A stretch of DNA of 34,045 bases from Syntrophomonadaceae bacterium (GTDB lineage Bacteria > Bacillota > Dethiobacteria > DTU022): positions 1 to 34,045 of the forward strand of contig SLQM01000188.1 of the NCBI GenBank assembly GCA_007131435.1, read 5' to 3'. Below, piece by piece: positions 2,517 to 30,114 of this stretch (position 1 is the stretch's first letter; the number at the start of each line of letters is the position of its first letter). Both the position numbers and the translations under genes were made by a program. The notes under the pieces were generated by a model. It was given only the letters and a program-made list of their open reading frames with translations, ran no database searches and had not been told where the DNA came from.

Positions 2517-3014
2517 ATGAAAACAAAGGAAAATCTGATGGCAGCTTTTGCCGGGGAATCACAGGCTAACAGGAAATACCTGGCCTTTTCCAAAAAGGCA
2601 GAAAAAGACGGTTTCAAGAATGTTGCCCGTATTTTTAAGGCTATTGCCGAAGCTGAAACTATTCATGCTTTAAAACACTTTGAAATTGCCGGTAAAGTAA
2701 ATGACACCCTTGAAAACCTGAAAGCTGCAGCTGAAGGTGAACACTATGAATTCTCGGAAATGTATCCTGAATTTATTGAAACAGCCAAACAGGAAGGAGA
2801 TAATAAGGCACTTCAGAGTTTTGAGTACGCCAATGCAGCAGAAAAAGTGCACGGCGGAATATTCAATGATCTAAAAGAAGCGGTTGCCAAAGGTTCTGAC
2901 TCAGAAGACAAAAATGTTTACCTCTGTCCCGTATGCGGGTGGGTAGGCTTTGATCCCGTTCCCGATAAATGCCCGATCTGTAATACGGCAAAAAAAGCTT
3001 TCCAGCAGTTTTAA
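2517..3014 (+). CDS. rbr: Rubrerythrin
   Basis: NLMAAFAGESQA, EAETIH, EGEHYE and EKVH di-iron ligands; C-terminal CPVCG...CPIC rubredoxin-like domain; AAGGAG RBS. Confidence 0.95.
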   Translation: MKTKENLMAAFAGESQANRKYLAFSKKAEKDGFKNVARIFKAIAEAETIHALKHFEIAGKVNDTLENLKAAAEGEHYEFSEMYPEFIETAKQEGDNKALQSFEYANAAEKVHGGIFNDLKEAVAKGSDSEDKNVYLCPVCGWVGFDPVPDKCPICNTAKKAFQQF

Positions 3015-3074: not shown

Positions 3075-6000
3075 CTAATTCCATTCATCAAAGATAAACA
3101 TTTCCTCTTCACTTAGGTTAAAGTAACTTTTTAAGTGGTTTAGAACATGCTCCTGGCGAAGTTCGGCAAAATTGCGCAGAACTTCCACCTGCCTGTGCCA
3201 GCGGTCCATTGACCCTCCCCACCTGTCCAGGTGCCTTGGCATTTCCGGCTCGATATTGGATGCCAGTTCATCAATCTTTTCTATAACCCTTTCTGTCTTG
3301 AAGGTATTATTGAGATGGAAGGCTGAGCGCTCGATAAACCTTTCCCTGAAATCGGAGTTGCGAAGTAACCCGTTAATCAGGTCGGTATTCAGGTTGCGCC
3401 ACGGCCCGGTCCCCCCCGGCAGGGTTGCATAAGCCAGGGTGTTGTTTGCATGATTGCCCTCCCAAAAGCCCCAGTCAAGGTCGAAAGTAATCCAGCGCCA
3501 TTTGCCATCTTCGTTCTGTTCACGCCAGAAACGGATATTAGCCAGGTCGGTCTGGGCAAAGTAGATTTGTGCTATCCAGTAATCTATATAGTTATCAATA
3601 TCCATCATGGCCGCCACGTGATTATAGCTATCCGGGTTTGAAAGGTCATTGCTGCGCACAAAATCAAGCATATCCCTGTAATGATCGTTGGAGCCAGTCC
3701 GTACCCAACCGTTACCCTGCAGCAGGTCTACCCGGTCAGGATCAACCCCATGATTGTAATGAAGATAATGATTGTTTATCCTTTCCCGCAAGTTATAAAT
3801 ACCCCAGTACTGCCCATTGATATAAAGAACTGTCTGACGGTAAGCCTGGTAATCATAATGCTCCAGGTCCAACAGGCTTGTCATAAAAATATCCCTGATC
3901 TTGGAAAACTGCCAGTCCTGGCCAGAAGTGCGCAGGGTTAGGCCTTTATTTGAAAGCGGCTTTTCGGGATAGAAGTCGGGGAAAAAGGGATAGGTAAATT
4001 CGTTATACCCGTAAATGTTGCGGGCAAAAAGGTTAAAAGATTTCTGCGGCTCTGCCCGGCTATACTGGCCGGCAATTCTTAAACCAAGGTCAAAACTGAA
4101 TCCTGCCTCGCCACCCGGTTCAAAAAACTCCATGTGGACGGGAATTTCTATATTTTGCCAAAAATTTGCACCCCGGTAGGGGAAATATGATGCGCCCCCC
4201 CGCCCTTTCATGTAGATGCCCCGAACAGGATCAAAAAAATCATCCGGGTCACCCATAATTGATATAACTGGCAGGTGGTGATCATCGCCGATGAAAAATG
4301 TACGGTTTACCGTCGGACCGGGCAGTTTTCCTTCTTCAAAAACCCTGGCCCTCAAAACAGTGGTCTCTGTTATTTCGATAGGCCCGCTGTAAAGTTTGCC
4401 TTCTTCATAAGAGGGGGTTTGAAGCCTGGTGTCTTCAGTAATAAATATCTGTCCATTATAGCGGGATAAATGAGCAGCTGGCTCCCTACCGTTTAAAGTG
4501 TAACGAATTTCTGCATCCGGTGAATCGGTAAAAAGCTCCACCGTTACTGGGTTGTCAAAAAAACCGCCCTGGGAAGATACCCGGGTAATGGCACCAAAAC
4601 CGCTGAAGACTTCCCCCTCATTCGGTGCGCCCGGAGAAGCTTTCTTAAAGAAAGTGCGGTTCCCACTCCCGCCCGGGCAGTGGCCTACAGATAAATCAGG
4701 CAGCAGTTTGCCGGAATGCAGGCTGTCTAACACCAGGCCGGTTGGATGGGTCAGGGATATGGTTTCACCTGTCGCCTGGATCTGGTAATTAGTGTGCAGG
4801 TAGTCATTTTCAGGATCCCTGCGATCTTTACGGGAAGCAAATACAAGCAGGTAATCACCTGGATTAATTTCGACAGAGGGCAGTACCCAGCGGAACAGAT
4901 CATCCTCATCATCTGAGAGGCCGAAACCTTCAAGATTTACCGGCTCAGTGCCCTGGTTGTGCAGCTCAATCCAATCCGGGTAGTCTCCATCTTCATCGGC
5001 GATTGTGGTCAGGTTCTCAGCCATAACTTCACTAATTATCAGGGTTCCCTCTTCTACTGCAGGATAAGCAGCCAACTCTTCATAGCCCATTGTTTTATTA
5101 ACTTCGCCGGGTGTGGGACGGGGAAAGAACAGCCAGGAATCTGGATCACCGGGATCGCGGCCGTATGAAATATCATCATGCTGAGCTCGTATGGGGATCA
5201 AATCAATAGTTTTTCCATCTGGTGTTTTAAATACCAGTTCATCATCTCGATCATTTAAACCAAAGTTAACATGCAAAAAGGGGTTGTCAGGATCATCAAT
5301 GTTCTTACCCGAGGCAAAAATAATTAGGTATTCCCCGGGCCCGATTGTAACACCGGGAAACCTCCACTTGAAAGGGTTACTTTCTTTATCTGAGAGCCAG
5401 TATCCTTCGAGATTAATATTTGCATCTCCGGAATTATAAAGTTCAATCCACTCATGCAGTTCGCTGTCTTCATCCATTATGGAAGTATAATTGCGTACTA
5501 AAAATTCATTAATATAAACGGGGTGGTCTTGGGCTCCAGGCAGATTAAAAACATCTTCATAAGGCTCTTTTTCGTTCGGTTCTCCCGGAGTGGCATCCAG
5601 GAAATAAGCCCATTCATCACCATAAGGCTGAGGGCGACCGAATGAAATATTTGATGGAATTTTTTCTTCGAAAACGATCTCATCCAGTATACGGCCGTCA
5701 ATATGACCAAACACCACGGCATCACCGCTGCGGTTGATTCTAAAATCGGTATGCAGGTTTTCACGATCAGGGCTTGACCGATTTTTACCGGATGCAAAAA
5801 CAACCAGGTGTTCACCGGGTTCTATGACAATACCTGGGAACATCCACTGCATGGGTTCATCAGGATCATTGGATAGCCAGTAGCCCTCAAGATTGATGGC
5901 CCTGCTCTTCGGGTTATGTATCTCGATCCAATCCGGGTAATCTCCATCTTCGTCCTGCAGCACAACCCTATTGCTGGCCATTATTTCGGTTATCATTAAA

Positions 6001-6116
6001 TCCTTACCGTCTACACTTAAAGCAACCAGCAGTAAGATAAGCACAATAAAAAAAACCAGAAGCCCAAATGTCATCCAACCTCTTTCAGTTTTACGGGGCT
6101 TATTTCTATAATACAT
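3075..6116 (-). CDS. CotH kinase family protein with three lamin-tail domains and an FN3-associated/chitobiase-like domain
   Basis: N-terminal TM segment; three repeats of I(T/N/S)E..D.D....WIE..N......NLEG..LS; IRYTLNGREP; C-terminal CotH motifs (GLRIAGQYSR, NGQYWGIYNLRERIN, WRWITFDLDWG). Confidence 0.85.
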   Translation of the reverse strand: MYYRNKPRKTERGWMTFGLLVFFIVLILLLVALSVDGKDLMITEIMASNRVVLQDEDGDYPDWIEIHNPKSRAINLEGYWLSNDPDEPMQWMFPGIVIEPGEHLVVFASGKNRSSPDRENLHTDFRINRSGDAVVFGHIDGRILDEIVFEEKIPSNISFGRPQPYGDEWAYFLDATPGEPNEKEPYEDVFNLPGAQDHPVYINEFLVRNYTSIMDEDSELHEWIELYNSGDANINLEGYWLSDKESNPFKWRFPGVTIGPGEYLIIFASGKNIDDPDNPFLHVNFGLNDRDDELVFKTPDGKTIDLIPIRAQHDDISYGRDPGDPDSWLFFPRPTPGEVNKTMGYEELAAYPAVEEGTLIISEVMAENLTTIADEDGDYPDWIELHNQGTEPVNLEGFGLSDDEDDLFRWVLPSVEINPGDYLLVFASRKDRRDPENDYLHTNYQIQATGETISLTHPTGLVLDSLHSGKLLPDLSVGHCPGGSGNRTFFKKASPGAPNEGEVFSGFGAITRVSSQGGFFDNPVTVELFTDSPDAEIRYTLNGREPAAHLSRYNGQIFITEDTRLQTPSYEEGKLYSGPIEITETTVLRARVFEEGKLPGPTVNRTFFIGDDHHLPVISIMGDPDDFFDPVRGIYMKGRGGASYFPYRGANFWQNIEIPVHMEFFEPGGEAGFSFDLGLRIAGQYSRAEPQKSFNLFARNIYGYNEFTYPFFPDFYPEKPLSNKGLTLRTSGQDWQFSKIRDIFMTSLLDLEHYDYQAYRQTVLYINGQYWGIYNLRERINNHYLHYNHGVDPDRVDLLQGNGWVRTGSNDHYRDMLDFVRSNDLSNPDSYNHVAAMMDIDNYIDYWIAQIYFAQTDLANIRFWREQNEDGKWRWITFDLDWGFWEGNHANNTLAYATLPGGTGPWRNLNTDLINGLLRNSDFRERFIERSAFHLNNTFKTERVIEKIDELASNIEPEMPRHLDRWGGSMDRWHRQVEVLRNFAELRQEHVLNHLKSYFNLSEEEMFIFDEWN

Positions 6117-6250: not shown

Positions 6251-6424
6251 ATGCAAAGCTACGTATGTGAACTCTGTGATTATACTTATGACCCGGGTAT
6301 AGGAGACATAGAAAATGGTGTTGCCCCGGGAACAGCTTTTGAAAACCTGCCCGACGACTGGAAATGCCCCGTATGCGGTGCAGAAAAGGATGAGTTCCAG
6401 GCTGTCCCTGACAAATCGCTATAA
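6251..6424 (+). CDS. Rubredoxin (57 aa)
   Basis: Own translation [57 protein letters not shown]; GAGGAGG RBS; below the ORF track cutoff. Confidence 0.97.
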
Positions 6425-6486
6425 AAATCAGGGCGGCTCATACTTCGTTTGAAAATACTATCCACCTGACTTGCAATATACGACAA

Positions 6487-6513
6487 GCGGGACAGTTACA
6501 GTAACTGTCCCGC
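6487..6513. terminator. Hairpin, probable bidirectional terminator
   Basis: GCGGGACAGTTAC-A-GTAACTGTCCCGC, 13-bp perfect inverted repeat between convergent small genes. Confidence 0.65.
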
Positions 6514-6599
6514 ATAATTTTTTAAATAGTTTAACTTGTTTCATACCTGTTATCTCTGAACATTGGCAGTCGTTAAGAGAGGTGAATAGTTCCGTTCCC

Positions 6600-6878
6600 T
6601 CAATGATCAAGCTGTTCTACTACATACTGGCCAAACACCCAAAACCCTACCCAGCTTATATTATATTTTTTGTCAACCATATCCTTACGGATATAAAAAG
6701 GTATACCCTCTACTTCAGTTTTCTCAAAATCATTTTCCTCTGCTGGTTTGCCTGCTCGCACGGCAGGGATATATACACAGCCACCTCAGCCGCCGCGGCT
6801 TGCCATGTAGAGAACGTGAGGGCCGCCCGCTTTTTTCATTTTTTCCAGCGCTGCTGCAGAAACTGACAGGTTAGACAT
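6600..6878 (-). CDS. Small selenoprotein (92 aa), HesB-like / CC-Se-motif type, UGA at codon 31
   Basis: GGAGG RBS then ATG 6878; MSNLSVSAAALEKMKKAGGPHVLYMASRGG-U(TGA 6788-6786)-GGCVYIPAVRAGKPAEENDFEKTEVEGIPFYIRKDMVDKKYNISWVGFWVFGQYVVEQLDH; frame stays open 61 codons past the UGA; SECIS-like hairpin downstream. Confidence 0.8.
6742..6781 (-). promoter_or_regulatory. Putative bacterial SECIS element
   Basis: Upper stem CCTGC-CGTGCGA-GCAGG starts 18 nt after the UGA; lower pairing GCTG(T)GT/ACCAGC. Confidence 0.55.
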
Positions 6879-6945
6879 TATAAAACCTCCCGGAAATATT
6901 TGTAGTTTCTTAATCAAACAAAAGCAATTAAGAATCATTACTAAA

Positions 6946-6954
6946 ATTATATCA
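6946..6954 (-). promoter_or_regulatory. Extended -10 promoter for the small selenoprotein gene
   Basis: TGaTATAAT about 70 nt upstream of the ATG. Confidence 0.5.
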
Positions 6955-6977: not shown

Positions 6978-8120
6978 TCAGGAACCGCCATTTATAAAAC
7001 CCTCTTCTTTCAAAATTCCGTGAAAGGCCTGCCTGGCATCGCTGATCGCTTTCAACCGCCACTTCTCCTCCAGGGGATAAAAAAGCTCGCTAAAATCAGC
7101 TATTGCCTGCTCAGCAGCTTTAGCGCTAACCGCACCGTAATGATAAACCCGGTTCTCATTAATCATCGCTTCAAGGCTTTTTAAGGCAGCGGGCAGAGAA
7201 TCGCCGTAAGTGCCAAACTCAAAACTGGTTGCATAAAATGGCTTTTCGGGGTAAAGATCTTTCATCAACAGGTAAAAGTAATCGATCATATCGCCCTGCA
7301 TCTGGTAAAATTCTTCAGGGTTTGTTTTAACTACCAGCGGATAATTAAATTCCTTTACCAAGTCACCGGAGGCACGGCTTTCATGGACTGAGTTGACCAA
7401 AGTCATCTGGTAACGCGGCCCATAACCGCTGTGCATGTCGATAAAAAGAACCTTCTTATAAGGTTCAATGGTATTATAGAAAATATTATTCATGATCACG
7501 GCTGACTCTTCAAAGCTTTTTCCCCCGTAATAGAGGCCCTTTGGATTAACATATTGGCCCATGTGCACAGCTTCACGGAAAGATCCTGATCCCATTCTCA
7601 CGTAGCGACCCAAAAGCTGAAGGAAGAAAAATAACCCCCTTACCTGCTTCAACGGCGAAGGAGGGTTTAAGAATAGTTCTAATTCACTGTAGCGCGCGTT
7701 AACATGATCACGAACCAGTTGGGGATCATAGATAAAATTACGGTTTAAATCAACGTTATTCTCATTAACCCTACGACGTTTATCCATGCCCCAGGGGTTG
7801 ATGGGAGATGCGAAGATTAAACCAGTTGTCTCAGGGTTCAGACAGTGAAGATACTCTTCTGCAAAAAGCCTTATCACGGCATTACCGATATAGCCTTCAA
7901 TACCGTGCAGTCCGCAGGAAAGCATTAGCAGGAGATCATTATCTCTAAGCGGAGCTGCTTCGATAACCTCTGTTGTCAATTGATCCTCAAAACCTCTAAG
8001 TGGGTGGCTTTTCAGGCATGCTTCCGGCCAGTAATCTTTCACTTTAGTTAAAAGGGCACGAAATTCGGCCCTATTATCTAAATATGTCTCAGCAAAGAAT
8101 CGGTGATCGCTTTTTTCCAC
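6978..8120 (-). CDS. M14 family metallo-carboxypeptidase-like protein (DUF2817 type)
   Basis: GLHGIEG (HxxE), INPWG...RRVNENNVDLNRNF, IDMHSG and FEFGT; start placed at GTG 8120 after AAGGAG (ORF track extends to 8201). Confidence 0.8.
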   Translation of the reverse strand: MEKSDHRFFAETYLDNRAEFRALLTKVKDYWPEACLKSHPLRGFEDQLTTEVIEAAPLRDNDLLLMLSCGLHGIEGYIGNAVIRLFAEEYLHCLNPETTGLIFASPINPWGMDKRRRVNENNVDLNRNFIYDPQLVRDHVNARYSELELFLNPPSPLKQVRGLFFFLQLLGRYVRMGSGSFREAVHMGQYVNPKGLYYGGKSFEESAVIMNNIFYNTIEPYKKVLFIDMHSGYGPRYQMTLVNSVHESRASGDLVKEFNYPLVVKTNPEEFYQMQGDMIDYFYLLMKDLYPEKPFYATSFEFGTYGDSLPAALKSLEAMINENRVYHYGAVSAKAAEQAIADFSELFYPLEEKWRLKAISDARQAFHGILKEEGFINGGS

Positions 8121-8286
8121 GAACCATGCTCCTTCCAGGTCATTACAATTAGAGTGTTTATAATTTATCAATAATTTTACATAGTGATTGTATCCCATCA
8201 AAAATAATTAGACAATATAGAAATAATGATTTTTCTTTGCAGGAGGAATTAGTAAAGCTGTAGAAAATTGTTTCCATCCTTTAATC

Positions 8287-12964: not shown

Positions 12965-14071
12965 TTATGCACTTCGATCTGCAAGAAAATAGGCAGAAAG
13001 CGCTGCTGTTATGGGAACTGAGAAAATCAGGCCAATGCTGCCAGCTATGCCACGGACAAATTCCGTTGCTATAAGGTCCATGTTGATCACTTTCAGGTAA
13101 TCGATTTCATAGCCCATTACCAGCAGCAGCATGGGTATTGCTGCGCCCACATAAGCCAGGATCAGGGTATTGGCCATGGTTCCCATTACATCTTGCCCTA
13201 CATTTAGAGCACCTTGAAAAAGTTCCCGGGGTTTTATATCCGGGCAGGCTTGCCTTATCTCTGCCGCAGCTGAAGCTACGGACATCCCTATATCAATAAT
13301 TGCTCCCAGGGAACCGATTATAATTCCAGCAAAAAGAAGCCCCCTGAAATCTATGGTGTGATCCATAAAGTAAAGCATCTGCGCTTCGTGGGTCCCAAAA
13401 CCGGTCAACCTGGCGAGACTGCCAGCCCAAAAAGCCATTAGGCCGGCAATTACGACCCCGCTTACCGTTCCGACAATTGCCACAACAGATTTTTTGTTAA
13501 AACCGCCAATAACAAAAAGGGTAAATGTAACAGCCATTATAGCAGTAAATACAGCAAGCAATATTGGGCTGTACCCTACCAGGAGCAGGGGAAGCAGGAA
13601 CCTGAAAACCAGTAAAATTGTAACACCAAGGGTGATAATAGTCTTTAAGCCCTTCATCCGCCCAACGAGCAGCAGCGCAACAAGGAACACGGCAATCAGG
13701 TAATAAACCCCGCGATCACGGGCCATGTCCTGGACATAAGCCCGTTCGAAGTTACCTTCTTCTCCCACTGCTACAACAATTACCTCCTGGCCCTCTTCCA
13801 GGAGGAAGTCAAACACAGGGTCTCCGGCAAAAAAAGTATTCACAATTGTTATCTCTTTACCGCTGTAAGGGCCGCTTGTCAGGCGAACAATAACCTCCTG
13901 CTCAATGATAGTATAATAATCATGCTCCTCTTCTTTACTCTCATCAACTTCCAGCACGCGGCCCCGGTAAAAGAATTCTTTTTCCGGCTCATAATAATCA
14001 TTATCAAACTGGGCCCCTACCGGAAGTGCAATTATCAAAATTGTCAATAAAGAACAAATAGCTATTTTCAT
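12965..14071 (-). CDS. YibE/F family membrane protein
   Basis: GIIIGSLGAIID, G.NVGQDVMGTMANTLILAYVG and GSIGLIFSVPIT motifs. Confidence 0.88.
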   Translation of the reverse strand: MKIAICSLLTILIIALPVGAQFDNDYYEPEKEFFYRGRVLEVDESKEEEHDYYTIIEQEVIVRLTSGPYSGKEITIVNTFFAGDPVFDFLLEEGQEVIVVAVGEEGNFERAYVQDMARDRGVYYLIAVFLVALLLVGRMKGLKTIITLGVTILLVFRFLLPLLLVGYSPILLAVFTAIMAVTFTLFVIGGFNKKSVVAIVGTVSGVVIAGLMAFWAGSLARLTGFGTHEAQMLYFMDHTIDFRGLLFAGIIIGSLGAIIDIGMSVASAAAEIRQACPDIKPRELFQGALNVGQDVMGTMANTLILAYVGAAIPMLLLVMGYEIDYLKVINMDLIATEFVRGIAGSIGLIFSVPITAALSAYFLADRSA

Positions 14072-27441: not shown

Positions 27442-30114
27442 TCAGGCTTTTTCGATGCTGATGGCGCAAACCTTTGTCTCCGGCGTTTTGGCTACCGGAT
27501 CGAGGGCCGAGCTGGTCAGTAAGTTGGTCGGACACTCGGCAAAGTGGAAACTTAAAGCAGCTACTCCGGGTTGGCTACGCCTGGTAATCCTGGCCTTTAC
27601 TTCCAGTTCACCGCGTCGTGATTTTACCTTAACCAGGTCGCCGTCTGCAATGCCCATCCTCTCGGCATCAGCCGGGTTGATCTTGATATGTTCGCCACCG
27701 CTCAGCTCATCCAGCCCCTCTGAATAACGGGTCATGGTACTGTGGAACTGGTAGAGGCTGCGCTCGGTGGTCAGGATCAAGGGAAAGTCAAAATCACAGC
27801 AATCTTCAGAAGGCCTGTAGGAAAGTGGCATCAGCTTGCCCTTGCCGGACGGGGTATTGAACTTTTCCGTATGAAGGACCGGGGTGCCCGGGTGATCTTC
27901 TGCCGGGCAGGGCCACTGGATTCCACCATGCTCAAGTCGCTCGTAAGTAATTCCGGCATAGCTGGGGGTAACCGCAGAAATCTCCCTGAAAATATCGGCT
28001 GCGCTGTTGTAGGCAAAACCTTCAGCTCCCATTTCATTGGCGATGGCGCTGATAATCCACCAGTCTGGTTTCGCTTCACCGACCGGTTCAATAACCTTGC
28101 GTACCCGCTGCACGCGGCGCTCGGTATTGACAAAAGTGCCGTTTTTCTCGGCAAAAGAAGCTGCCGGAAGAACAACATCTGCCTTCTGGGCGGTTTCGTT
28201 CAGGAATATATCCTGGACAACGAAGAATTCCAGCTTTTCCATCGCCTCGATGGAATGCGAGGCATTGGCCTCAGTCAGCACCGGGTTTTCGCCAACCAGG
28301 TAAAGGGCTTTGACATCGTTCCTGTAGGCGGCATCGAAAATCTCAGTGTGGGTGAGGCCCGGTTTGGGGTTCAGCTCAATTTTCCAGCTGCCCTCAAATT
28401 TTTGCCTTGCCCCTTCATCTTCTACCTTCTGGTAACCGGTGTAAACGTTGGGCAGCGAACCCATGTCGCAGGCGCCCTGCACGTTGTTCTGTCCGCGCAG
28501 GGGATTAACCCCGCCAGAAATGTTGCCCAGGTTACCGGTAATCAGGGCCAGGTTGCTTAAGGCCAGCACGTTGTCCGTGCCGTGGGAATGCTGGGTAATA
28601 CCCATGCAGTAGAGCAGCGATGCCGGGCTGTTCTGGGCATACATTCTTGCCGCTTCAACTATTTTTTCTTCCGGTACGCCGGTTATATCGCTGACAAAAT
28701 CAAGGCTAAACTCCGAGAGCGATTCTTTAAAGGCCTCAAAGTTTTCAGTGCGCTCCTCTATATATTGCTGGTTGTGCAGCCCTTCCTCGACAATCACGCG
28801 GGCCATGCCCATCAGCAGGGCAACGTCGCTGCCCGGCCTGATCTGGAGGAAAAGATCGGCAAAGCGGACCAGCGGAACTTCCTGCGGATTCGCAACAATC
28901 AGCTTTGCCCCGCGGCGCACCGCTTTTTTAACCTGGTAGCCAATAATCGGGTGCGCCTCGGTAGTGCTTGTGCCGATAGCCATGATGCAGGCTGAATCGG
29001 ATACTTCACCAATCGTGTTGGTCATTGCCCCGCTGCCCAGTGTAGTGGCCAGACCGGCCACGGTGGGAGCGTGTCAGAGACGGGCGCAGTGATCGATATT
29101 GTTGGTGCCCATCACCGCGCGGGTAAATTTCTGCAGCACATAGTTATCTTCCACGGTGCACTTGGCTGAAGCAATAGTTGCGAACTGGTCACCTTTATAC
29201 TGGCCAAGTTTTTCGGAAATCAGTGAAATGGCCTCTTCCCAGCTGGCTTCAACAAGCTCACCGTCCCTGCGGATCAGCGGGGTGGTAAGGCGCTCGGGGG
29301 AATTAACAAAACTGAGGCCATAGCGCCCCTTAACGCAGAGGCTGCCGCCGCTGACCGGGCTGTCCTCCACCGCCGTGGAGCTGACAAGTTTGCCGCCTCT
29401 GGCCCCGACCAGGATGTTGCAGCCGCAGCCGCAGAAGGGGCAGACCGTTTCAACTTCGTAGGTCGGTTCAATCGCCTTTTGAGGAACAAGTGCCCCAACA
29501 GGGCAGCGCGACACACACTCGCCGCAGGTGACACAGGTGGAATCGATAATCGGCTTGTCGCCAAGCACGCTGATCCGCGTTTCAATACCGCGGAAGGCGA
29601 AATCGATACATTCATCGCCCTGGATCTCTTCACAGGTGCGCACGCAAATGCCGCATAAAACACATTTGTTCATATCACGCTGGTAATAGGGGTTTGAATC
29701 ATCAATCGGAAAATCGAGCGCCGGTGCGCGCATGGCGCTAATCCGCTCTTCATCGATCCCGACGTAGCGGGTCAACTCCTGCAGTTTACAGTAGCTATTC
29801 TTGGCGCAGTTCTGGCAGTCGTAATCATGGTGAAGAATGAGCAGTTCCATGTTTACCTTGCGGGTCATATCCAGCTCTTCGCTGGAAGTGGTAACCACCA
29901 TTCCTTCTTCTACCGGGGTCATACAGGATACTGTCGGCCGGCGCCCTTCAATTTCAACCAGGCAAACCCTGCAGATGCCGACCGAGGTCAGGTCTTGATG
30001 ATCGCAGAGGTGGGGAATATAGATGCCGTTCTCCAGGGCTGCCCTCAATATAGAGGTGCCCTTTTCCGCCTTTATCTCCACACCATCTATGGTTAAGGTA
30101 ATTAACTCTGACAT
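27442..30114 (-). CDS. fdhF: Formate dehydrogenase alpha subunit, selenocysteine-containing (890 aa, Sec at codon 347)
   Basis: ORFs 29074..30114 and 27442..29061 are in one frame joined by NNIDHCARL-TGA-HAPTVAGL. N-terminal 2Fe-2S/4Fe-4S domains, CPFCGCGC, LRGQNNVQGACD and molybdopterin-binding motifs. Confidence 0.95.
29045..29061 (-). promoter_or_regulatory. SECIS element of fdhF
   Basis: GTGGCC-GGTCT-GGCCAC hairpin starting 12 nt after the in-frame UGA (29076-29074). Confidence 0.8.

Follow-up and report, generated by a model that had tools for sequence, protein, structure and literature searches.

A hidden selenoprotein gene of the NF041239 (CC/Se motif) family in a Syntrophomonadaceae genome, with a compact SECIS-type hairpin and a predicted IscA-type fold

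The DNA analyzed here (the window, meaning the whole stretch of 34,045 nucleotides from a Syntrophomonadaceae bacterium) carries on its minus strand, at 6878–6600, a short coding sequence interrupted by a TGA codon. A preliminary description, made from the sequence letters, had placed a gene at these positions and gave no strand. The minus-strand frame begins with ATG at 6878–6876 and comprises 30 sense codons, an in-frame TGA at 6788–6786, 61 further sense codons, and a TGA stop at 6602–6600; with the internal TGA read as selenocysteine (Sec, U), the product is 92 amino acids long, and the residues around codon 31 spell R-G-G-U-G-G-C. A GGAGG ribosome-binding site, read from the sequence, lies at 6886–6890, 7 nt 5′ of the ATG. 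Farther upstream, at 6954–6946, is a perfect match to the extended −10 promoter box, TGATATAAT, without a good −35 box; the window holds six matches to the extended −10 pattern, where 1.37 ± 1.19 are expected, and TGnTATAAT occurs upstream of the gene in 29 of the 34 clade members examined. A scan of the window for consensus promoters returned nine sites, none of them upstream of the selenoprotein gene on the minus strand. The promoter-like element, ribosome-binding site, codon counts, and TGA within GG-U-GG-C listed in the preliminary description can all be located on the minus strand; a plus-strand reading of 6600–6878, also considered and rejected, yields an unrelated frame that lacks the GGUGGC motif.

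The gene is invisible to standard ORF calling, as the preliminary description had also anticipated: the 92-residue frame is missing from the table-11 list of ORFs of at least 80 amino acids, where an antisense ORF of 131 amino acids (6471–6866) appears instead. This antisense ORF was rejected as a real gene, since 7 of 34 clade members keep it open, whereas all 34 keep the sense frame open on both sides of the internal TGA. Public gene calls consist of back-half fragments of 44–59 amino acids or of a read-through with tryptophan. Relative to the window, changes in clade members at first, second, and third codon positions run at 0.41, 0.22, and 0.56 before the TGA and at 0.26, 0.24, and 0.52 beyond the TGA and the hairpin described below, with third positions dominating on both sides. 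The hidden gene missed by ordinary annotation is real.

Several neighbors of the gene are shared with related loci. Its convergent neighbor on the plus strand encodes rubredoxin (6251–6424) and is followed by a 12-bp terminator-like hairpin (6487–6513), whose T-tail is called on the plus strand only; this hairpin may also end the selenoprotein transcript. A rubrerythrin gene follows on the plus strand (2517–3014), and an isc-like group lies on the minus strand at 283–2266, composed of iscS/nifS (1061–2266), iscU/nifU (685–1068), and a tusA-like gene (283–639). Between the selenoprotein gene and the rubrerythrin and iscS genes stands a CotH/lamin-tail gene (3075–6116, minus strand), and upstream lies a DUF2817 gene (6978–8201, minus strand), with the promoter box between it and the selenoprotein gene. 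In the cluster of loci that includes the window (30 loci at 55% identity), rubredoxin is present on the opposite strand in 27 and rubrerythrin in 20, and the isc-like genes are kept downstream on the same strand: iscS in 18 loci, and in 14 of the 15 with at least 2.9 kb of flank, with iscU and tusA in eight each. A PLP decarboxylase, distinguished from IscS in these counts, occurs in none of the 30. The CotH gene is found only in the window and one same-genus locus, and sets iscS 4.3 kb away from the selenoprotein gene; iscS in clade loci is usually nearer. The preliminary description had suggested that the selenoprotein might serve the isc-like operon. Association with iscS is upheld by these counts, but membership in a shared operon is not: a promoter box of its own precedes the selenoprotein gene, and genes on the other strand intervene. 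The genes upstream in the cluster, glycerate kinase (21 of 30 loci) and DUF2817 (10 of 30), are unrelated and conserved too; the local order may therefore be plain synteny.

The product belongs to a family that is already catalogued. It matches the CC/Se motif family (seleno)protein profile NF041239 (Moor_selen_rel) at 52.1 bits (cut-off 40, E 5.2e-14), with profile positions 3–90 of 91 covering residues 4–89, and a six-frame search of the genome with the same profile gave 45 bits. Its length is that of the family, U31 occupies the conserved N-terminal column at which the family carries Sec or Cys, and relatives match PF28096 (CC_Se_fam). The kinship with HesB-like and CC/Se motif selenoproteins proposed in the preliminary description is borne out by this score and by the HesB/IscA-like predicted fold considered below. 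A Pfam search with the window protein gave no match at E 0.01; a PDB sequence search with a 31-row profile gave a single match, at E 0.33, which was disregarded. In the ESM Atlas, queried with a relative carrying Trp at the Sec column, the top scores (0.82–0.85) all fell in CC/Se clusters and are treated as leads only. The family is listed, with one Sec and the motif CxxU, as predicted in Moorella thermoacetica (PMC13188914), and without a motif in PMC9312934; family terms are absent from the main text of PMC2398784 and PMC13326102. Because the family has curated models and a listing in two reviews, the gene alone is routine, and it is a new member rather than a new kind of protein.

Members of the family were found in 31 of 61 related genomes and in 57 of 201 genomes sampled across the phylum, mostly with one in-frame TGA. 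A DNA pattern scan covering 56 of the 64 parts of a species collection, built on the same TGA and hairpin, caught 118 loci, of which 102 are family members; the remaining 16 are non-members and were dropped. The pattern loci include Moorella, Desulfofundulus, Pelotomaculum, Thermovenabulum, Halobacteroidaceae, Dethiobacter, and Syntrophomonadaceae bacterium, and a Moorella thermoacetica record is among those caught. In viral contigs, the pattern matched 13 times, with no relatives of the family among the matches.

Two lines of evidence, from homologs and from the genome, bear on how the internal TGA (6786–6788) is read. A census of the corresponding column in 107 distinct homologs, chosen by HMM and not by DNA pattern, found TGA in 76, tandem TGA-TGA in five, Cys-TGA in one, Cys in 23, and Ala and Asn in one each; neither Trp nor Arg was found among the 107. 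In a 31-row alignment, 28 of the other rows have TGA opposite U31 and two have Cys; one row (L025) was shifted by the aligner, and the wider census took its state from the true TGA. The genome encodes selA, selB, and selD, all above cut-off and all on one contig (C127), and a tRNA-Sec with anticodon TCA on another (C101). In the window itself, the formate dehydrogenase alpha subunit gene (27442–30114, minus strand), which the preliminary description had taken as a sign of Sec use, is interrupted in frame by a TGA at codon 347, with a hairpin of its own after it. Thus the TGA-or-Cys column, the conservation of both flanks, and the full set of Sec machinery that the preliminary description had proposed looking for are all present, and none of the three observations that it named as refuting (a non-Cys residue such as Trp or Arg at this position in homologs, no conservation past the TGA, or a genome lacking the machinery) applies here. 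Across the phylum sample, selA is found in 56 of the 57 family-bearing genomes, compared with 145 of 201 overall (cross-read by hand). Of the 31 close relatives whose genomes bear the family, four gave no selA match, and selB or tRNA-Sec is present in three of those four. Taking both samples together, five carriers are without selA; selB or tRNA-Sec passes the cut-off in four of them and neither does in the fifth, which is 86% complete; a pattern in which four of five retain part of the machinery fits assembly gaps.

It is conceivable that the TGA is a true stop, leaving a pseudogene or a short peptide, or that it is read as tryptophan, and the public gene calls, with their back halves and Trp read-throughs, follow just such readings. 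We regard this as extremely improbable: TGA is held at one column across the phylum, the frame is kept and third-position changes dominate both upstream and downstream of it, and homologs without TGA carry Cys, not Trp. The window gene, moreover, ends in TGA as its true stop, where relatives stop with TAA or TAG, which rules out a general Trp code. Insertion of Sec at codon 31, with SelB binding a CGUG-loop hairpin in the message, is by contrast close to certain. In a metatranscriptome searched at 90% likeness, where a small share of the region was present, nothing lay over the gene except a 20-nt match. At 80% likeness, a 313-nt contig of a relative, with 41 differences in 247 nt, spans the TGA and the hairpin and leaves the stem and CGTG unchanged; it may derive from library DNA and is not counted as evidence of expression.

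The hairpin itself lies at 6751–6767 on the minus strand, where a CCTGC stem, a 7-nt loop starting CGTG, and a GCAGG stem code for P-A-V-R-A-G. Its 5-bp stem begins 18 nt past the TGA, and its loop lies at 23 nt. The published bacterial SECIS model calls for a loop of 3–9 nt, a stem of 4–16 bp, a loop 16–37 nt from the UGA, a G at loop position 1 or 2 with G or U directly after it, and an energy of −7.5 kcal/mol or lower (PMC13188914). The geometry of the hairpin fits throughout (7-nt loop beginning C-G-U-G, with G-U at loop positions 2–3; 5-bp stem; 23-nt spacing). Its energy is less telling: the isolated hairpin has −6.3 kcal/mol, compared with the published limit of −7.5, and the 46-nt region containing it has −11.4 kcal/mol (z +0.47); across four folds, the region compared with shuffles gave z of −0.08 to +0.83, with no signal.

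Comparison among loci is more informative. The count was confined to HMM-selected loci, since the DNA pattern scan itself selects for the hairpin: 70 of the 76 TGA forms have the structure, and none of the 23 Cys forms does. The codons beneath it are narrowly fixed: among 30 TGA loci, Pro is written CCT in 23 of 24 cases, Ala GCC in 29 of 29, and Val GTG in 29 of 30, compared with genome-wide use of 0.26, 0.34, and 0.19, respectively. In 28 distinct rows, with L025 left out, the stem positions pair in 95.7% of cells, compared with 18–39% for slid partners. One stem pair in the 28-row set has changed on both sides; among 72 loci, pair 3 is UA in 59, CG in eight, and UG in four, and pair 4 is GC in 56, AU in 14, and GU in two. 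Because the loci are related, any p-value on such counts is inflated. RNAalifold predicted four of the five stem pairs unaided, and across the genome the hairpin motif turns up at three places, all of them 18 nt past a TGA. Its presence in TGA forms, its absence from Cys forms, and its compensatory changes together make it very likely, on comparative sequence evidence, that the hairpin is a SECIS element; the hairpin of the preliminary description thus stands by comparison, and would not stand by folding energy alone.

The residues around the Sec are far more variable than the Sec itself. The preliminary description had built a redox role on a UxxC motif, and the window protein does carry Cys34 (6777–6779), three residues after U31. 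Among 115 distinct Sec members drawn from the pattern and relative sets, Cys is found at −3 in 40, at +3 in 15, at −4 in 14, at +1 and +4 in five each, and at −1 and +2 in four each; 32 have none from −8 to +6. The same scatter appears in the HMM-selected set, with a +3 Cys in 13 of 76. In a quick tree (93 columns, 178 rows), the window protein falls in a 43-row clade with support 99, and even among the 35 non-lipoprotein rows of this clade, 7 have the +3 Cys, 14 a −4 Cys, and 11 none. UxxC is not conserved and cannot carry the inference that was drawn from it. The CxxU motif given for the family in Table 1 of PMC13188914 fares similarly: the window protein has Arg28 at −3 and its Cys at +3, and CxxU is present in only 40 of the 115 Sec members. 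CxxU is thus not family-defining, and membership rests on the HMM score and the Sec/Cys column. Sec is the sole fixed residue of the motif, so that neither label defines the chemistry and both miss the point.

Structure prediction places this residue on a familiar scaffold. The model of the window protein (mean pLDDT 84) has strands at residues 21–30 and 33–42 with U31 at the turn between them. The top Foldseek matches are SufA and IscA (E 3e-4 to 1e-3), and VIA-align places IscA (1r94) at the top with Z 10.3, rmsd 2.8 Å, and 87 residues aligned. Below it come SufA, DsrR, and further chains of IscA type, the lowest at Z 5.9; unrelated chains reach at most 2.4. All matches with Z of 5 or more are IscA-type, and no thioredoxin fold is among the matches listed in either fold search. 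The Sec is therefore predicted to be exposed at the tip of a long β-hairpin, in the place of the first Cys of A-type carriers. The likeness to IscA, SufA, and ErpA (PF01521, TIGR00049) is thus one of predicted fold (Z 9–10, rmsd about 2.8 Å over 84–87 residues) and, by a weak alignment, of U31 with the first conserved Cys; identity is 8–14%, and the window protein ends before the C-terminal CxC. The model spans IscA residues 1–95 with nothing opposite the CxC, no CxC follows the Sec region in any of 115 members, and the window protein has no Cys after position 34. Neither PF01521 nor TIGR00049 matches it, the sole hit being ErpA_rel at 16.8 bits (cut-off 65).

The absence of the CxC matters, as A-type carriers are defined by Cys-Xn-Cys-X-Cys (PMC7144353); truncated carrier domains have been noted in Firmicutes (PMC2682760). 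The same genome encodes a separate HesB-like selenoprotein on contig C101, its sole PF01521 match, which combines U35 with a C-terminal CxC and scores 70 bits against TIGR00049 (cut-off 58.8); its U aligns with U31 in a profile comparison, weakly (probability 12%). The window protein shares with HesB-like selenoproteins (TIGR01911; IscA_HesB_Se, NF038090) a small IscA-type build and a Sec preceded by Gly-Gly or similar, but it has U-G-G-C in place of their UxGP motif and gives no TIGR01911 match. The HesB-like selenoprotein of Methanococcus is itself described as having no known function (PMC11097638). The preliminary description had offered a redox or Fe–S carrier role; of these, a classic Fe–S carrier role is unlikely: none of the 115 members has the CxC, and the genome encodes a complete U...CxC carrier at another locus.

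Neighboring genes were surveyed at 130 Sec loci (49 clusters) and 23 Cys loci (18 clusters), after 21 of 181 distinct loci had been dropped for short flanks. Of the 130 Sec loci, 31, from 10 of the 49 clusters, have a thioredoxin/TlpA, thioredoxin reductase, CoA-disulfide reductase, or CcdA gene within about 1.5 kb and always on the same strand; none of the 23 Cys loci does; in Moorella-type loci, a thioredoxin-like gene comes next, within 14–82 bp. Such genes are held by 1.5% of random 3.3-kb windows of the window genome, a background drawn from a single genome at a slightly looser E-value; many of the surveyed loci are short-flanked, and related genomes do not count as independent. No thiol-redox gene was found within about 1.5 kb in 39 of the 49 Sec clusters, among them the window's own (0 of 30 loci), and most Sec clusters have unrelated neighbors. 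The Cys forms differ, with arsenic or heavy-metal export neighbors at 6 of 23 loci and cstA at five.

Two further branches of the family were observed. The window genome has two paralogs, on contig C186, with a hydrophobic leader ending L-S/T-G-C and the same TGA and hairpin; a simple pattern flagged 10 distinct forms of this lipoprotein type, and the eight included in the quick tree form one clade (support 100) inside that of the window. Tandem TGA-TGA marks the second branch, whose five distant members form a group in the tree (support 96) and have another, longer hairpin. Both forms occur among the sampled NF041239 members and are absent from the table of PMC13188914, in the available text of which the word "lipoprotein" has no occurrences; no paper describing them was found in the literature searched. 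Lipoprotein selenoproteins of other families have been described (bioRxiv 2022.07.06.499078).

What such a protein might do can be proposed in outline. We tentatively favor, at somewhat less than an even chance, a role in redox defense for one exposed selenol that is recycled by thiol reductases, with the type of substrate only proposed. The gene's own promoter box, TGA, and hairpin would yield a 92-residue protein with a single Sec on an IscA-type fold, SelB binding the CGUG-loop hairpin so that Sec enters at codon 31. The selenolate might then attack an oxidant or oxidized sulfur, whether peroxide, polysulfide or persulfide, or the disulfide of a partner; the adduct would be resolved by an outside thiol (thioredoxin/TlpA or CoA) or by any local Cys that a lineage has gained, and thioredoxin-type or CoA-disulfide reductases would recycle the selenium site. 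In the window's lineage, this selenol may work within the oxygen-stress defense of an anaerobe, beside rubredoxin, rubrerythrin, and Fe–S repair genes. CcdA and TlpA supply electrons outside the membrane, and the lipoprotein branch fits a selenol chemistry that could run there. The thiol-redox genes beside 31 of the 130 Sec loci speak for such recycling. Against the redox-defense reading, the window's own cluster is among the 39 of 49 without a neighbor of this kind, and both rubredoxin and rubrerythrin are encoded on the other strand and occur in one cluster only.

The same scaffold and neighborhoods lend themselves to other roles. The protein could be a truncated A-type carrier, or a sulfur or selenium relay for IscS–IscU–TusA, in which U31, working alone or paired across a dimer, would pass on iron, a cluster, or persulfide. 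The IscA/SufA predicted fold, the weak correspondence of U31 with the Sec of the HesB-like protein, and the same-strand iscS, iscU, and tusA of the window cluster all lean this way, as do two loci at which iscS follows at 185 bp (L108) and, from another family, at 288 bp (L236). Yet only 2 of 49 Sec clusters have iscS next to the gene, the window gene has its own promoter with opposite-strand genes between, the lipoprotein branch would sit outside the cytoplasm, and the Cys-Xn-Cys-X-Cys that carriers need is supplied in this genome by a different, complete protein; we consider such a relay unlikely, while keeping it in view. Rather more doubtful is a selenol-held binder of thiophilic metals or metalloids (As, Hg, Cu, Cd) that hands its ligand to an exporter. 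ArsD works in this manner, passing bound metalloid to an exporter. It is the Cys forms, nearly all of which have a CC pair, that suggest such a role: 6 of 23 loci (5 of 18 clusters) lie by acr3, arsA, arsC, a heavy-metal P-type ATPase, or a SaoE/SO_0444-type permease, and one (L217) sits between arsA and acr3. A ligand role would also fit a Cys free to sit anywhere from −4 to +4, and the five Cys forms that follow cstA recall the small CC/CU proteins reported to follow that gene (bioRxiv 2022.07.06.499078). These Cys forms are, however, distant in the quick tree; comparable neighbors occur at 3 of 130 Sec loci, two of them ArsR-type regulators only, and 32 of 115 Sec forms have no nearby second ligand.

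Nor does an IscA-type fold imply a carrier or a ligand site. DsrR of Allochromatium vinosum reportedly puts this fold to non-carrier use, and both it (2k4z, Z 9.6) and YneR (9a4q_B, E 8e-3, TM 0.57) are among the fold matches, at 15–18% identity. PdhI (YneR of Bacillus subtilis) blocks pyruvate dehydrogenase by inserting Y31 (PMC10090944), and the window protein can be imagined as a regulator that grips a partner enzyme by the tip of its hairpin, the Sec serving as a switch for redox or selenium status, with W76, W80, and G83, conserved in the clade, suggesting a binding surface, and with its own promoter and scattered neighbors befitting a free-standing factor. Neither PdhI/YneR nor DsrR is in the selenoprotein table of PMC13188914, and a costly Sec recoding held across the phylum points to chemistry at the residue itself, so that we think a regulator improbable. 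Least persuasive among the functional readings is the classic UxxC selenylsulfide oxidoreductase that the preliminary description implied. The spacing of U31 and C34 is indeed that of UxxC, 15 of 115 members are alike in this, and a local selenylsulfide is possible in the window protein; but the Cys is gone from most close relatives (present in 7 of 35 clade rows) and elsewhere is found at −4, −3, −1, +1, +2, or +4 or nowhere, and the fold matches are IscA-type, all of which makes this enzyme very unlikely.

A broader reading, speculative and in our estimate improbable as a whole, would take NF041239 as a portable selenol finger: a carrier scaffold that has lost its CxC, bearing one Sec at the hairpin tip and plugged into varied thiol, sulfur, or metal circuits. 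The window's lineage would then have made it a dedicated Sec partner of an IscS–IscU–TusA and rubrerythrin island, and a duplicate would have given rise to the exported lipoprotein branch. More immediately, the compact SECIS, with its clean contrast between TGA and Cys forms and its compensatory changes, is suited to reporter tests in anaerobic Bacillota, and the lipoprotein and tandem-UU branches are ones for which the papers searched held no description. The redox-defense proposal offers a testable hypothesis of function for NF041239 and bears on the role of HesB/IscA-fold selenoproteins. If the selenol-finger reading were true, selenium chemistry on an IscA-type fold would take place on both sides of the membrane.

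Two lipoprotein-like paralogues of the NF041239 family lie on contig C186 of the genome to which the window belongs (G000), at L002:1393-1764 and L003:1390-1761, and score 40.1 and 29.1 bits, respectively, against the family profile (curated cut-off 40 bits). Further members of this type occur at loci L064, L070, L079, L088, L099, L140/L221, L219, and L220. The lipoprotein-like forms group as a single nested clade and, judged from their sequences, appear to carry a hydrophobic leader ending in a putative lipobox-type Cys; they share the TGA column and hairpin of the window's selenoprotein gene, and most lack a second Cys. Immediately 5' of the L003 paralogue is an AhpD/CMD-like gene with the motif C-R-Y-U (L003:915-1331), the hairpin of which also has a CGUG loop.

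Distant family members at L230-L234 (genomes G105, G140, G246, G215, and G180) contain two TGA codons side by side (UU), followed 13-17 nt downstream by a 7-8 bp hairpin; a [FeFe] hydrogenase-like gene is found shortly downstream in L232-L234. CC and CU copies stand in tandem at L207 (G105:C17), and single genomes harbor two to three copies within 6-12 kb at L229 (G094:C21), L235 (G090:C67), and L204 (G173:C90), in the vicinity of CoA-transferase, acyl-CoA, or metal-export genes. The Cys (CC) forms at L217, L205, L218, L204, and L199, and at L201-L203, L206, and L216, are situated in arsenic/heavy-metal export clusters or immediately 3' of cstA; L217 is flanked by arsA and acr3.

Within the window, the formate dehydrogenase alpha subunit gene (27442-30114, minus strand), part of a NuoE/NuoF-like bifurcating-type cluster, is broken in two by ORF calling at Sec codon 347. 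Five additional perfect TGnTATAAT boxes occur at 13536, 15114, 20621, 24154, and 25889, all on the minus strand. Elsewhere in G000, L239:1498-1815 (G000:C101:5583-5900) encodes a HesB/IscA selenoprotein that contains U35 as well as a C-terminal CxC motif; its gene lies closely 3' of one of the ArsR type, and tRNA-Sec is 4 kb away. Because ARAGORN also calls a tRNA-Pyl with a CTA anticodon (G000:C134:29117-29188, minus strand), this organism may use pyrrolysine in addition to Sec.
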